Positions 5,032 through 54,215 of a DNA stretch of 64,000 bases are shown one piece after another. The notes beneath the pieces are model-generated. The model saw only the letters and a program-made list of their open reading frames with translations, did no database searches and was not told where the DNA came from. Position 1 is the first letter of the stretch. Each line of letters opens with the position of its first letter. A program made the translations under genes and the position numbers. The stretch lies in NCBI RefSeq assembly GCF_029227855.1, contig NZ_CP074356.1; one strand, given 5' to 3'. The DNA comes from Escherichia coli (GTDB lineage Bacteria; Pseudomonadota; Gammaproteobacteria; Enterobacterales; Enterobacteriaceae).

Positions 5032-5889
5032 TCAGGCTACCGCTTTTTCAGTTTGTTGCGCTTTCAGCCAGGCGATCTCTTCTGCCCAGATATCCGGGTT
5101 GATGGTTTCAAGGATCAGCGGAATGCCGTCGAAACGGTCGTCCTGCATGATCCAGCGGAACGCATCATGACCGATATTGCCTTCACCGAGGCTATGATGG
5201 CGGTCAACGCGGCTGCCAAAGGTGCTTTTCGCATCGTTAAGGTGCATCCCGCGCAGATACTTAAAGCCGACAATACGGGCAAAATCCGCGAACGTTTTCT
5301 CGCATTCGGCTGGAGTACGCAAATCATACCCGGCAGCAAAAGCATGGCAGGTATCAATGCAGACGCCGACGCGGGATTTATCTTCCACGCCGTCGATAAT
5401 CGCCGCGAGATGTTCGAATTTAAACCCTAAGTTACTGCCCTGACCGGCGGTGTTTTCAATCACCGCTGTCACACCTTGAGTTTTATCCAGCGCAATGTTG
5501 ATGGATTCGGCAATACGCGCAAGGCAATCCTCTTCTGAAATCTGCATCAGATGGCTGCCAGGGTGGAAGTTGAGCAAAGAAAGCCCCAGCTGTTCGCAAC
5601 GCTGCATTTCATCTATAAACGCATCGCGCGATTTTTCCAGAGCTTCAGCGACCGGATGTCCGAGGTTAATCAGATAACTGTCGTGAGGAAGAATTTGCGC
5701 CGATGTGTAGTGATATTTTTCACAGGCGGCTTTGAATTCATCAATGGTTTGCGTCGTGAGCGGTGCGGCACGCCACTGACGTTGGTTTTTGGTGAACAAG
5801 GCAAACGCGGTTGCGTCGATTTCGGCGGCGCGAATTGCGGCATTTGCCAGACCGCCAGCAGCACTAACGTGCGCTCCAATGTATTTCAT
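5032..5889 (-). CDS. nfo: Endonuclease IV (AP endonuclease)
   Basis: 285 aa; xylose-isomerase-like TIM barrel fold with His/Asp/Glu metal ligands. Confidence 0.95.
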
Positions 5890-32886: not shown

Positions 32887-33059
32887 AAAGTTCTTTTGTG
32901 TTGCATTGCTGGCGTAAATGTCAGCAATGCAGCATTTCCTCACGATTCTCCTTTGACGATCGCACTTTTTGCTCGTTATGATGGCGTCGCTAGCCTCAGT
33001 AAATCCTTACTCCGGCGGTGCGCAACCCGTGCGCGTGAACCACTATCTGAATGCTCATC

Positions 33060-48874: not shown

Positions 48875-50007
48875 GACTGAAGATTCTCCGCAAGCCAGGT
48901 CGCCAGTTCGCCCGGCGTCATGGCGGCTATTTGTGCACCGACATTAACCAGTGCCTGGGCCATATCGCGGTCATAGCAAGGTGTTGCGGTGCTATCGAGC
49001 GCCGCCAGTCCCAGCACTTTGACGCCGCTCTGGACACACTTTTTCACCTGATGCGTCAGCAATGATGATGAACCCCCTTCATAGAAATCGCTCACGAGGA
49101 TAATGACGCTTTTCGCTGGTTGTTCAATAAGTTGCCGACCATACTCCACGGCACTGGCGATATTGGTCCCGCCGCCCAGTTGTACTTTCATTAATAACTC
49201 TACTGGATCAGCAACGTCTGCCGTGAGATCAACGACGCTGGTGTCAAACGCCACCAGATGGGTACGAATGCCGGGTAACTGCCATAAACAGGCCGCCATC
49301 ACCGCAGAGTGGATCACCGAATCGACCATCGATCCGCTTTGATCAACCAGTAAGACCAGTTGCCATTGTTCGCTTTGGCGTTTAATGCGGCTGTTAAAGC
49401 GGGGGGATTCGATATACAACTTGTCGTGTTGCGGGTGCCAGTGTTGCAGGTTGGCGCGCAGAGTACTTTTGAAATCAAAGTTTCGCGCCAGTGGAATAAA
49501 TGAGCGGCGACGGCGATCGCGGACACCAGAAAAAGCCTGACGAACTTCCTTTGCCAGTCGCGCCATAATTTCTTCAACTACCTGGCGCACTATCCGGCGG
49601 GCGGCAGCCAGCACTTCGGGATTCATCAGATGTTTGGTGTGCAAAACGGCGCGTAACAGGCTTTCAGAAGGCTGCATACGTTCCAGCACGTCGAGATTCG
49701 TCAGCACATCTTCAATGCCGTAGCGCAGTACGGCATCGCTTTCCAGCCGCTCGATCACCTGTTGCGGAAACAGCGTGTGAATACTGTTGATCCACTCAGG
49801 GGTGGTGAGATTTGAGCCACCTAATCCACCAGAGCGTTCACCACGCTGGAGCCGTTCAGGATCGCGCCCATACAGCCACTCCAGCGCGTGGTCTATCTGC
49901 CGGGCGTTGTCATCCAGCCCACAAAGGGTCGTTTCTGCCGCTTCGCCAAGAATTAATCGCCAGCGTTGTAGCTCACGGGTGGTCAGAAGATCGTTCAGTT
50001 CAGACAT
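48871..50007 (-). CDS. yehP: von Willebrand factor A (VWA) domain protein YehP
   Basis: ORF 48871..50235 trimmed to MSELNDLL.. (378 aa); DxSGS MIDAS-like motif (VDQSGSM). Confidence 0.85.
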   Translation of the reverse strand: MSELNDLLTTRELQRWRLILGEAAETTLCGLDDNARQIDHALEWLYGRDPERLQRGERSGGLGGSNLTTPEWINSIHTLFPQQVIERLESDAVLRYGIEDVLTNLDVLERMQPSESLLRAVLHTKHLMNPEVLAAARRIVRQVVEEIMARLAKEVRQAFSGVRDRRRRSFIPLARNFDFKSTLRANLQHWHPQHDKLYIESPRFNSRIKRQSEQWQLVLLVDQSGSMVDSVIHSAVMAACLWQLPGIRTHLVAFDTSVVDLTADVADPVELLMKVQLGGGTNIASAVEYGRQLIEQPAKSVIILVSDFYEGGSSSLLTHQVKKCVQSGVKVLGLAALDSTATPCYDRDMAQALVNVGAQIAAMTPGELATWLAENLQS

Positions 50008-52231
50008 GGAAAACTCCCCAGTGTTGCAGCGATGCCAGTGCCTGCTGTTCGAGTTGTTGATGATGTGCAATGGCTTGTGGTGGACAATGCAACGGCATTT
50101 GCAGCGCTGAAACGGGAAGCTGTGCGAGCTGGTAATGCTCAAGCACCTGATGCGCCAGCGTCCCGCGTTCTCGTGGTGGTAGCCAGGCCATCGCTGCGCG
50201 TAAATCGGGCAGGGCGTTAATAAAATCGTCGTCACTCAGTTGATTTAAATGACTACTGAAACCGGCGATAAATGCCGGCTGACAGGCCAGTTGATGGCGG
50301 GCCAGCGCCAGCATCGTCAGCGCCGCTTCGGCACTGGCGTTGGGATGTTCCAGACGCATTAGTGCGCCAAGAGCCGCGCTGCGATCCAGCGCCGGGGCAT
50401 GAATCGCCTGACTGCGGCGCTCCAGTAAGGCTACCGCCGCAGAAAGCGAAACGCCGGGTAAATTAACGCCGCTATGTAGATCGCGCAGGATATGGCAAAG
50501 CGCCTGCCAGCTATGCAGGTGAGCGTGAAACTCCTTTTCCTCCGGTCTGCCGTTGGATTCACACAGCCAGAGTGTGCGATCGATAGCCGCGCATAACGTC
50601 GTCTGTAATATCTGCGCGCCTTGCATACCGCTAATTTCATCCAGCCGCCATAAGGCGTATAGCACTTCCAGCGCCTGGCCCATTTCGGCAAACTGATTTT
50701 CCTGGGCGATTAATAATGTAAGTTGCTCCAGTAATTGTTGACTGAAGGACGCCAGACCCGCTAACGCCGCCTGGCTAAGACATGTGGTGATACTGCCGAT
50801 TCCACCCGCGTCCAGCATATCGGCTTCTAATTTATTGCGTGCGGCTTCCTGGAGTGTGGCACCAAAGCAGGCGGCCTCAATCAATGCCGCATGCTGGCTA
50901 AGCGGGCGGGTTAATTTCCAGCGTTCTTCACCGTTGCCTGCAAGTGTCAGTGTGCTTCCCTGCTGGCGTACAATCCCTGGGATCTCCAGTATTACCAGCC
51001 GATGTAACACCTGACTTTGCGCCAGTCCATCGGGGGTAAAGCGATTTAAGGTAAGCTCTGCCGGAAGAGAGATTGTGGTACGTTCCAGTTCGCAGGTGAC
51101 ATCTTTTGGCAGAGGCGGCTGTGGCGTAGAGGGGGCAAGTTTACCGAATCCGCCACCCGCTAATGTGTCTATCAACGTTAGCAGAATCGGATCGGTATCG
51201 GGATGAATAACGCCGCGATAGCTCCACGGCAACGGCGCGTTCAAGGCTTCTTTAATCAGCGAGCCTGCTATGGCATCCAGCCAGTCAGTGCGTAACGGTA
51301 GTGTATGACCGCGCAACTGTGCCAGCGCCATCGCATGCAGATGAGCGGCAGCCATATCAGCGGTAGAAGCGGGCAATTTGTGCTGGCGCAAACGGGTAAG
51401 GATAGTTTTTAGCAGTTGTTCACCGGCCTGCTGTAGGCCCCACTGCCAGCACCAGTTTTGCCAGACCGGGGCAGGCATACCAGAAAGGTATCCTGCCAGC
51501 ACATCAAGGCGCTTTTCACTGTAGGGGGTGAGATAACAACCTGTAACGGCATCTGCCAGCTAGGGCAATTCCGGCGTGTTAATTTCCTGCGTGTATTCGC
51601 GCCACATCTTTGCCAGTGCCGGAGCATGCCAGCCGCCGCAGACGACTAACACGTCGCCATTGTTTTGCTGCATCGCCCATCCAATCCAGCGGGCCATAAA
51701 GGCTTCGCGCTGACGATTGAGGGCATCTCCGGGGGAATCGCCCCGCAGTTGTGCAAAATAGTGCGCCAGCGCAGAGGGTAATGCAGTTTGCTGGCTTTCA
51801 TCTTCGAACAAGTGATCCCACAGGGTGTCGCTGTTATCCATGCGGGTGGCACGCAGCAGTAAGGTCTGGCTGTCATCTTGCGTATCGGGTGATTCGTCTT
51901 CTTCTTCACTCTGCGCCCAGCAAGGCAAATCGATGAAGTAAGTTTGTGCCTGAATACGACGTGCGGCTTGTAGCGCCTGCCACTCCGGCGAAAATTCAGC
52001 AAATGGCGTCCAGGCACCACGCCCGGGGGCTGCACCGTCCTGATACTGGCAATAACTGTAAATAGCTACCGGAAGCTGGTGGGCTAAAAACAGTTCGTCT
52101 ACCCGGTCATTAAAATCAGCCGGGCCTTCAATCAACACGTATCGTGGCCGCTGGCTTTCGATTAACGATTTCACCAGCCGGGCGCAGGCCGGACTATGAT
52201 GCCGGATGCCGACAATTAACGGCTCGCTCAT
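50000..52231 (-). pseudogene. yehM: YehM, interrupted by a single in-frame amber codon
   Basis: ORFs 51560..52399 and 50000..51502 are in the same frame, separated only by TAG at 51560..51562; start MSEPLIVGIRHH at 52231 with GAGGAAAG RBS. Confidence 0.7.
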
Positions 52232-52241
52232 GCATCTTTCC

Positions 52242-53319
52242 TCACGGCAGGCGGTGGCGGGCTTGATAATAAGCCTGCCAGTGAGCTTCTTTATGTGTGG
52301 CGACACGCTGTTCGAAGTAACGGCGCAGACGCGCGCGATCTTCTTCGTTATCTTTAACGATGGTTCCGGCAATACAGTCCACCAGATCGGCTGGCTCACC
52401 TGCGCGATTCGCTAAAAACCAGGCGCGGACGCCCACTGCGTGGGCCACGTTCACGGCTTCAGCGGTGGATATAATTGCCGTCAGAGTATCCATTGACGTT
52501 TTCTTTTCGCCGTTGGCACGCAGATCGCGGAAGGTGCGGACCAGTAACTCCAGTACCGCGTCAGGCACTTTATGCGGAATACCGCTATGGGCCAGCAAAC
52601 GCGCCGAAGCACTGGCGACCAGTTCCAGCTCCTGGGCGAAATCCATAATCGGAAAGACGGTTTCAAAATCGAAGCGACGCTTTAGCGCGGCACTCATCTC
52701 ATTGACGCCGCGATCGCGGGTATTGGCAGTGGCAATAATATTAAAGCCTTCCCGCGCATAGAGCTGACTGGCTTCACCGGTGAGTTCCGGCACCGTCATC
52801 ACCCTGTCAGAAAGCATACCTAACAGACAGTCTTGTACTTCCAGCGGTGTACGCGTTATCTCTTCAAAACGGACGATTTTGCCGTCGCGCATTCCCTGGT
52901 AAAGCGGGGCAGGGACCAGTGCTTCCGTAGACGGACCATGGTTGATAAGCAGGGCGTAGTTCCATTTGATCTTCAGTAGTAGATGCGCCGCCCTGGATGG
53001 TTAACCCGGCATCGCCGCTAATAGCGGTTGCCAGTAATTCAGACAGGAGAGATTTTGCGGTGCCCGGTTCCCCCACCAACATCAAACCGCGCCCGGTGGC
53101 AAGAGTGACTAACATACGTTCGACAGCGGAGGGACTAATCACCACTTTACGGCTAATATTTTGCGCGCTATCGCCAAGGATAAAAGCACGGGCCGCAGGC
53201 AAACTTAACTGCCAACCGGGCGGGCAAGGTGCGTTATCATTTTGTTTTAATTTTGCCAGTTCATCGGCGTATAACACAGCAGCAGGCGGACGCTGCAGAT
53301 GATTATTCTGCGGTGACAT
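52242..53319 (-). pseudogene. yehL: MoxR-type AAA+ ATPase YehL, frameshifted
   Basis: Walker A GEPGTAKS lies in ORF 52864..53385; continuation ([26 protein letters not shown]) is in another frame from about 52965; total span 1078 nt is not a multiple of 3. Confidence 0.7.
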
Positions 53320-53431
53320 ATATTCATCCCTGAAATGTATTAATGAAATAAACGATATTTTACGCGCAATAAATGTTTGGCGCATTAGTTGTTTGAGCGA
53401 AAAATATCTGGAAAGCAGATCACAGTAAATA

Positions 53432-53466
53432 AAAAAACCTGCTGGTGAGGCAGGTTCTTTTATTTA
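53432..53466. terminator. Bidirectional rho-independent terminator
   Basis: aaaaaaa-cctgc-tggtgag-gcagg-ttctttt; A-run and T-run flank the stem, so it works in both orientations. Confidence 0.6.
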
Positions 53467-53513
53467 CTATTTTCAGGCCCAACACCGCAGCCTGTGCAAC
53501 ATCGTGTTCCAAC
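53432..53513 (-). ncRNA. Candidate antisense antitoxin sRNA (OrzO-like)
   Basis: Minus-strand -35 TTGCAA (53548..53543) and -10 TATAAT (53525..53520) put the start near 53513; first 18 nt are complementary to 53662..53679 in the toxin 5' UTR at 17/18; ends at terminator 53432..53466 (about 81 nt). Confidence 0.4.
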
Positions 53514-53519
53514 GAACGA

Positions 53520-53570
53520 ATTATAACCATCGGTGGACCCCGTTGCAATTAAGATAATGAGATTTATAAT
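53520..53570. promoter_or_regulatory. Divergent sigma70 promoter pair sharing a palindromic -35 TTGCAA
   Basis: Plus strand: TTGCAA (53543..53548), 16-bp spacer, TATAAT (53565..53570). Minus strand: the same TTGCAA, 17-bp spacer, TATAAT (53525..53520). Confidence 0.55.
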
Positions 53571-53751
53571 CCAGACGGTTGGGACGTTGCGCCGGATCGG
53601 ACCAATTTTAAGTCCTGGCTACCGGACGGGTGGTGCTGCAGGTGGTGCCCTGATCCGGAGTGCAACATCGTGGTCCAACATACGTAAACCAGTATCGACA
53701 GGCAGTGTAAGGGTAAGGTGCTGGTGTTGCGCTCCTTAATAAGGAGAGCGG

Positions 53752-53841
53752 ATGGACACGCTGACACAAAAGTTAACCGTGCTCATTGCCGTACTGGAGC
53801 TATTAGTGGCTCTGTTACGGTTGATTGATTTGTTGAAGTAA
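53752..53841 (+). CDS. zorO: Type I toxin-like small hydrophobic peptide (ZorO-like, 29 aa)
   Basis: AAGGAG RBS at 53741..53746 then MDTLTQKLTVLIAVLELLVALLRLIDLLK; single amphipathic helix like TisB/DinQ-type toxins; not recalled at this position in K-12. Confidence 0.6.
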   Translation: MDTLTQKLTVLIAVLELLVALLRLIDLLK

Positions 53842-53863
53842 TGGGCAAATTGAAACGCATCTA

Positions 53864-53887
53864 AGGGGGAATACCGTTTCCCCCTTT
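53864..53887. terminator. Stem-loop between convergent zorO-like ORF and yehK
   Basis: aggggga-ataccgtt-tccccct followed by tttaataaagctattttt. Confidence 0.5.
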
Positions 53888-53894
53888 AATAAAG

Positions 53895-54215
53895 CTATTT
53901 TTCTATTTCTTGGTTGAATATATTCTGTAGTTCGCGATTAAAAATGGCTATTACCGTTTCTGGTGATTCGCCCCGTAATTTTCGCTCATCAATAAACTCA
54001 TCTCTTATATAAATCAACGCATCATTTATTAGCGGGTCGACATCCTCTCGATCACGTTGATGAAATGTTGGATGTAGCCGGAATCGCTCCAGTCGGTAGA
54101 CGGAACCTGTAAATAATTCAGAGCATTTATGGATCTCAAGTCTGAAGGAAAACGGATCTTCAGGTACAGGGACCTCATAATCGTAAATAGCAACCAGCTC
54201 TTTTTGCACGATCAT
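53895..54215 (-). CDS. yehK: Uncharacterised protein YehK
   Basis: 106-aa ORF downstream of yehI. Confidence 0.65.
   Translation of the reverse strand: MIVQKELVAIYDYEVPVPEDPFSFRLEIHKCSELFTGSVYRLERFRLHPTFHQRDREDVDPLINDALIYIRDEFIDERKLRGESPETVIAIFNRELQNIFNQEIEK

Follow-up and report, generated by a model that had tools for sequence, protein, structure and literature searches.

Does the interval between yehL and yehK in the 64-kb stretch of Escherichia coli DNA analysed here (the window, for short) hold a zorO/orzO-like type I toxin-antitoxin module, as the original prediction proposed, and, if it does, which toxin and which antitoxin specificity does it carry? We think it very probable that positions 53433-53887 of the window are a single intact copy of zor/orz, which has the zorP/orzP type of pairing and encodes the ZorO peptide. 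The zor/orz system is an established one that has been described in detail, and the copy in the window shows no departure from the literature. In a covariance-model scan, the OrzO-P family (Rfam RF02083) was found only once in the whole window, at 53431-53506 on the minus strand, with a score of 101.3 bits (E 3e-17, gathering score 60) and with the model matched end to end. According to the list of open reading frames and the annotation of related genomes, the locus is flanked by yehL, which is frameshifted, and by yehK. This placement agrees with the position published by Fozo et al. (2010, PMC2887945), who located zor/orz between yehI and yehL, at the z3289/z3290 site. The proposed module thus stands, as the Rfam match, the peptide, the position, and the layout are all as published; leader length, mRNA size, pairing site, and divergent arrangement agree with what has been described for zorO/orzO.

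The toxin gene is an ORF of 29 codons on the plus strand (53752..53841) that begins with ATG and has the strong ribosome binding site that had been predicted for it, AAGGAG at 53741-53746, 5 nt before the start codon. Its product, MDTLTQKLTVLIAVLELLVALLRLIDLLK, is identical at 29 of 29 residues to ZorO, the sequence of which is printed in section 4.3 of PMC6669753. The peptide had been described as a single amphipathic helix; the helix is retained, but with a GRAVY of 1.40 and with three positive and three negative charges, it would more aptly be called a hydrophobic transmembrane helix that contains charged residues. Given a transcription start at 53578, the leader would be 174 nt long, which equals the published length of the zor 5′ UTR (PMC5397157). 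From distances that match those of published transcripts and from the predicted fold, we place the toxin mRNA, some 310 nt long, at 53578..53887 on the plus strand; it is composed of this leader, the ORF, and a 3′ hairpin. Extended to 53887, the mRNA measures 310 nt, or 282 nt once the 5′-most 28 nt of the leader (53578..53605, plus strand) are taken away; these nucleotides, mapped by position from PMC5397157, are lost through processing in the characterised system, whose transcripts have reported lengths of about 310 and 280 nt (PMC3919570). The 3′ hairpin or terminator, AAGGGGGAA-UACCGU-UUCCCCCUU (53863..53886, plus strand), is predicted from the fold, lies where a transcript of the published length (about 310 nt) would end, and is oriented towards the convergent end of yehK, at 53895.

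The structure predicted for this mRNA is also consistent with what is known of the leader. The predicted fold of the 310 nt has an energy of -115.6 kcal/mol (z = -3.4), and it is more stable than those of shuffled sequences. In both the minimum free energy and the centroid folds, nucleotides 1-27 of the mRNA pair with approximately +62 to +102, including GUUGG (1-5) with CCAAC (98-102). These nucleotides would thus cover the antitoxin site and the EAP region, which extends from +73 to +102 (53650..53679, plus strand, with coordinates transferred from PMC5397157 and PMC11264685) and contains a standby-like GGAGTG at 53657-53662. The Shine-Dalgarno sequence, in turn, is predicted to be sequestered in a hairpin at 53730..53750 on the plus strand (CGCUCCUUAAUAAGGAGAGCG). 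[quoted passage not shown]

The antitoxin gene, of the OrzP type, lies on the minus strand at 53433..53513 and would give an sRNA of 81 nt with the 5′ end GUUGGAACACGAUGUUGCAC, as judged from the Rfam match, the published architecture, and the alignment with O157. Its start at 53513 was inferred from the published architecture and from its distance of 7 nt past the -10 element, and the span from 53513 to 53433 bears out the predicted size of about 81 nt. The sRNA begins with GUUGGAACACGAUGUUGC, its V1 triplet (+9 to +11) is ACG, and it shares its first 22 nt with orzP of K-12 and of O157; in the body of the sRNA, two substitutions, at positions 27 and 34, set it apart from EDL933-type orzP. 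An intrinsic terminator hairpin, AACCUGCCUCACCAGCAGGUU followed by a U-run (53436..53456, minus strand), was identified from the structure line of the Rfam alignment, a terminator scan, and the fold, and an A-run on its opposite side makes it symmetric. The earlier proposal of a bidirectional terminator is true of this shape, and the Rfam alignment and the fold show its use by the minus-strand sRNA, although the terminator scan lists the hairpin on the plus strand alone. The fold of the sRNA by itself is unremarkable (z = -1.3). Weak Rfam matches to the Thr leader, to the Trp leader, and to OrzO-P on the plus strand (53351-53461) were discarded, being far under their gathering scores and driven by the terminator hairpin.

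A consensus scan of 53300-53950 found exactly two promoter-like sites, each with a score of 10/12. The zor promoter (53543..53570, plus strand) has the -35 hexamer TTGCAA at 53543-53548, a 16-bp spacer, and the -10 hexamer TATAAT at 53565-53570, while the orz promoter (53520..53548, minus strand) has TTGCAA at 53548-53543, a 17-bp spacer, and TATAAT at 53525-53520. Both had been foreseen in the original prediction, in which a promoter about 174 nt upstream of the toxin ORF was proposed to share its palindromic -35 hexamer (53543-53548) with a minus-strand TATAAT. Such sites are no commoner here than chance would allow, with 2 found and 1.4 expected in shuffles, and given that the counts from the promoter and terminator scans do not exceed those in shuffled sequences, we did not use them alone as evidence. 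The weight of the promoters comes instead from their position and conservation; among zor/orz loci, the reported conservation of their hexamers is 99% or higher (PMC11264685 Table 3). As the same palindromic -35 belongs to both promoters, their joint occupancy by two RNA polymerase holoenzymes seems unlikely, and one could imagine a putative either/or switch between toxin and antitoxin initiation at the level of transcription, atop the known control at the RNA level, an idea that we regard as doubtful. When the main zor/orz papers were searched by terms, none proved to discuss mutual exclusion through the common -35, which may be implicit in their figures.

The connection between the two RNAs is provided by a direct repeat. 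The predicted repeat of 18 nt with one difference was recovered at 53496-53513 and 53662-53679, with 17 of 18 bases identical, when only 0.01 chance matches would be expected in the whole window and two were present in 0 of 100 shuffles. The repeat reaches 20 nt (53494-53513 and 53660-53679), still with the one difference. [quoted passage not shown] The predicted cognate duplex has a 6(1)13 arrangement, that is, 19 bp with a single A·G mismatch at +7 of the sRNA, and an energy of -34.0 kcal/mol. Pairing by 18 nt of the 5′ end, combined with a divergent arrangement of the genes, has been described for this system (PMC3919570, PMC5397157), and repression has been found to require at least 15 continuous paired nucleotides, or at least 17 discontinuous ones with one internal mismatch (PMC3919570; PMC11264685). 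Furthermore, an engineered OrzO with 6(1)11 pairing gave full repression (PMC3919570). The 6(1)13 pairing predicted in the window lies within these experimentally defined limits. The mismatch at +7 (53507 in the window, facing 53673 in the leader) is kept in all P-type and Q-like cognate pairs that we recovered, including that of copy 1 of O157:H7, whereas the O-type cognate pair has a G·U at +13 instead. Among the P, O, and Q-like types, the 5′ end of the sRNA and the site in the leader vary together, with duplex energies of -31 to -34 kcal/mol for cognate and -16 to -27.5 kcal/mol for non-cognate combinations. Such co-variation is what one would expect if the interaction of the two RNAs were under selection and the copies were insulated from each other.

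The specificity of the antitoxin is where the name zorO/orzO and the sequence of the window part ways. Wen et al. (2014, PMC3919570) showed that the V1 triplet sets specificity, being GAA in OrzO and ACG in OrzP, and ZorP differs from ZorO by T3S (PMC11264685). Our comparison sequence was the two-copy locus of one O157:H7 strain, in which the V1 triplets as published, together with T3S and the stated equality of orzP in MG1655 and EDL933, served to assign the O and P copies. The copy proximal to yehL has ACG at V1 and a peptide beginning with MDS, corresponding to ZorP, while the copy proximal to yehK has GAA and a peptide beginning with MDT, corresponding to ZorO. Over the whole module, the window is 97.1% identical to zorP/orzP and 89.0% identical to zorO/orzO of O157. 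Its V1 is ACG and not the GAA of orzO, and its highest identity is to EDL933-type zorP/orzP; these two properties make it a P-type module despite its ZorO peptide. The name zorO/orzO is thus correct as far as the toxin peptide is concerned, but not for the specificity of the antitoxin.

One could still argue that the locus is a zorO/orzO pair proper, with O-type antitoxin specificity, since the peptide is that of ZorO, having T3 at the position of S3 in EDL933 ZorP, and both the coding sequence (89/90, versus 87/90 for the zorP copy) and the 3′ UTR (45/46 versus 43/46) are marginally nearer to zorO of O157. We give this reading practically no chance, and at the level of sequence it is already refuted. 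Apart from V1, the sRNA is identical to orzP at 79 of 81 positions and to orzO at 64 of 81, the promoter region agrees with the P copy at 61 of 64 positions and with the O copy at 45 of 64, and the duplex of a P-type sRNA with an O-type leader reaches just -18.9 kcal/mol, which goes along with the reported inability of OrzP to repress zorO (PMC3919570). The peptide itself tells little about specificity, because ZorO is the commonest one, making up 72.5% of all zor ORFs whatever the type of the locus (PMC11264685). The same resemblances might instead suggest a chimera, generated by unequal crossing-over between tandem zorP/orzP and zorO/orzO copies, in which orzP and the zorP leader became joined to the coding sequence and 3′ part of zorO. 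This would account for a 5′ part that is P-like and for a coding sequence, 3′ UTR, and downstream flank that are slightly nearer to the yehK-proximal O copy of O157, and tandem copies are frequent enough, with some 1800 extra places among 3397 genomes. However, the 3′ half differs by a mere 1-3 nt, and a P-type sRNA and leader together with the T3 ZorO peptide are found both in S1-SRB-02-B, a strain with two copies, where they form copy 1, and in a number of unrelated strains that have one copy. The same allele is carried by M217, ST131, ATCC 25922, and HS4, and over 53320-53900 M217 and strain 167 are 100% identical to the window. As the combination is so widespread, no chimera is needed, and we dropped this very improbable explanation; it is rather S3 and the other changes in copy 1 of O157 that look derived and specific to that lineage. 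For this common allele, the name of the peptide (ZorO) and the specificity of the antitoxin (OrzP type) are in conflict, which could mislead the choice of the cognate antitoxin.

A different kind of doubt concerns whether the P-type copy, although it looks intact, is a physiologically silent relic, possibly still transcribed into both RNAs yet never yielding toxin at a relevant level. A single chromosomal copy of zorO-orzO has no growth phenotype in MG1655, and native ZorO is detectable only from a multicopy plasmid (PMC9860968); in addition, the toxin half is gone from one third of E. coli genomes, and in the window two neighbouring genes, yehL and yehM, are pseudogenes. Against this, the promoters, the ribosome binding site, the length of the ORF, and the potential for pairing are more than 99% conserved over 2439 loci (PMC11264685), and the sRNA co-varies with its target site. 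This conservation and co-variation point to selection on a regulated pair, and we consider a silent relic quite unlikely.

If the P-type copy in the window works as the literature would suggest, two divergent sigma-70 promoters with one palindromic -35 would produce the 81-nt sRNA from the minus strand and the toxin mRNA of about 310 nt from the plus strand. The full-length mRNA would be poorly translated because its first 28 nt or so fold on the EAP region and because the Shine-Dalgarno sequence is held in a hairpin. Loss of the 28 nt from the 5′ end would expose the EAP region and promote translation, probably by offering a standby site for the ribosome. By pairing through its 5′ end with the EAP region on the 3′ side of the latter (53660-53679), the sRNA would block translation and lead to decay of the mRNA that depends on RNase III, and the peptide of 29 residues, if made, would insert into the inner membrane, causing depolarization and depletion of ATP. 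Our own observations and computations cover which elements are present and that each is intact, how the sRNA pairs with the leader, and how the RNAs are predicted to fold, while the toxic effect, its relief by the sRNA, the need for RNase III, the processing step, and the influence of the EAP region are taken from published experiments on zorO-orzO of EDL933, and we infer by analogy that the P-type copy in the window behaves in the same way. For zorO-orzO, it has been reported that the toxin is toxic on overproduction, that the cognate sRNA rescues the cells, and that this depends on RNase III (PMC3919570); Hfq independence, localization in the inner membrane, depolarization, and loss of ATP have also been described (PMC3919570, PMC6669753, PMC9860968). 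Overproduction of z3290 (ZorP) has been tested as well (PMC2887945), and in the literature we found no direct demonstration of repression of zorP by OrzP, the mechanistic experiments having all been done with zorO-orzO.

The characterised pair, zorO-orzO of EDL933 (z3289/sRNA-1), has the same 29-residue toxin, the same 174-nt leader with its Shine-Dalgarno hairpin and its EAP region with GGAGTG, the same promoter hexamers, and a divergent 81-nt sRNA that likewise pairs by its 5′ end. It differs from the window in its V1 triplet and in pairing through 18 contiguous nucleotides (one of them in a G·U pair) instead of the 6(1)13 arrangement, and the O and P types are not expected to cross-react. 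The closest relatives, zorP-orzP of EDL933 (z3290/sRNA-2) and OrzPmg of MG1655, resemble the window in their site by yehL, the 5′ end of the sRNA, the ACG at V1, and the promoters, and zorP-orzP of O157 also has the same leader target site and A·G mismatch. EDL933 ZorP has S3 where the peptide of the window has T3, and the O157 pair stands in tandem with zorO/orzO, while the locus in the window is single-copy. The peptides and RNAs of tisB-istR1 and shoB-ohsC are not known to be related in sequence to those of zor/orz; tisB is controlled by LexA, and for zor no LexA control is known. [quoted passage not shown] In dinQ-agrB and in plasmid dinQ-like leaders, only part of the zor leader is similar, and the toxin ORF and the antitoxin differ. 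For instance, 53605-53717 of the zor leader (about 113 nt) is 74% identical to positions 913-1027 of the 38-kb Salmonella plasmid NZ_CP039600.1, and it has been reported that plasmid dinQ-like toxin ORFs have zor-like sequence upstream (PMC11264685). Apart from this partial leader match, our search of plasmids returned mislabelled chromosomes or very large replicons.

The original prediction had also tied ZorO-OrzO to pathogenic E. coli, a restriction that does not hold. Among 5426 complete E. coli genomes, 5232 match the orz region of the locus and 3397 carry the toxin half, at 5238 places. The derived numbers of genomes that keep the orz half alone and of those with neither half are about 1835 and about 194, respectively. 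These proportions are close to the published ones, namely 25% of genomes with one copy, 42% with two copies, around 30% with orz only, and 3% with none (PMC11264685). K-12, from which the locus had been said to be absent, belongs to the orz-only class: the toxin is indeed missing, but orzP and the two promoters are still present in the spacer between yehL and yehK (L002 2500-2810), along with some 35 nt of leader, after which the yehK flank follows. The orphan sRNA of K-12 is expressed and has been named OrzPmg (PMC11264685). The locus, its copy-number variants, the O, P, and Q types, and the orphan antitoxin of K-12 are already in the literature (Fozo 2010; Wen 2014, 2017; mSystems 2024 survey). 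Nevertheless, all nine RefSeq E. coli records that we inspected lack an annotation for the zor ORF and for the orz sRNA, and an NCBIfam scan of the peptide matched no family. The lack of an NCBIfam model explains the missing annotation and is not evidence against the identity of the peptide. Automated annotation consequently misses a toxin gene present in around 63% of complete E. coli genomes. In several of the nine records, yehK is frameshifted or has been swapped for a different small hypothetical gene.

Several other features of the window were noted around the locus. Compared with its K-12 counterpart, the yehL gene (52232-53320, minus strand) lacks 11 bp (nt 355-366 of yehL), with the lesion near 52964, and is split into ORFs at 52864-53385 and 52242-52892; in the closest genome, M217, it is annotated as 'frameshifted'. 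Next to it, yehM (about 49950-52231, minus strand) has an apparent in-frame stop at 51560-51562, which leaves two ORFs in one frame (51560-52399 and 50000-51502), in agreement with the 'internal stop' note in M217. Given the frameshift and the stop, both neighbours downstream of the toxin-antitoxin locus appear to be pseudogenes in this lineage. Farther away, the Rfam Peptidase-S11 RNA motif (RF03039) matches 32975-33055 on the plus strand with 72.8 bits (gathering score 34.8), and going by the gene order of K-12, this is probably the leader of pbpG. Finally, an inverted repeat of 16 nt (53354-53369/53393-53408, 88% complementary, with a 23-nt loop) lies between the start codon of yehL and the orz terminator, and the tandem-repeat unit of strains with two copies seems to start just within it, near 53400 (AAAAATATCTGG).
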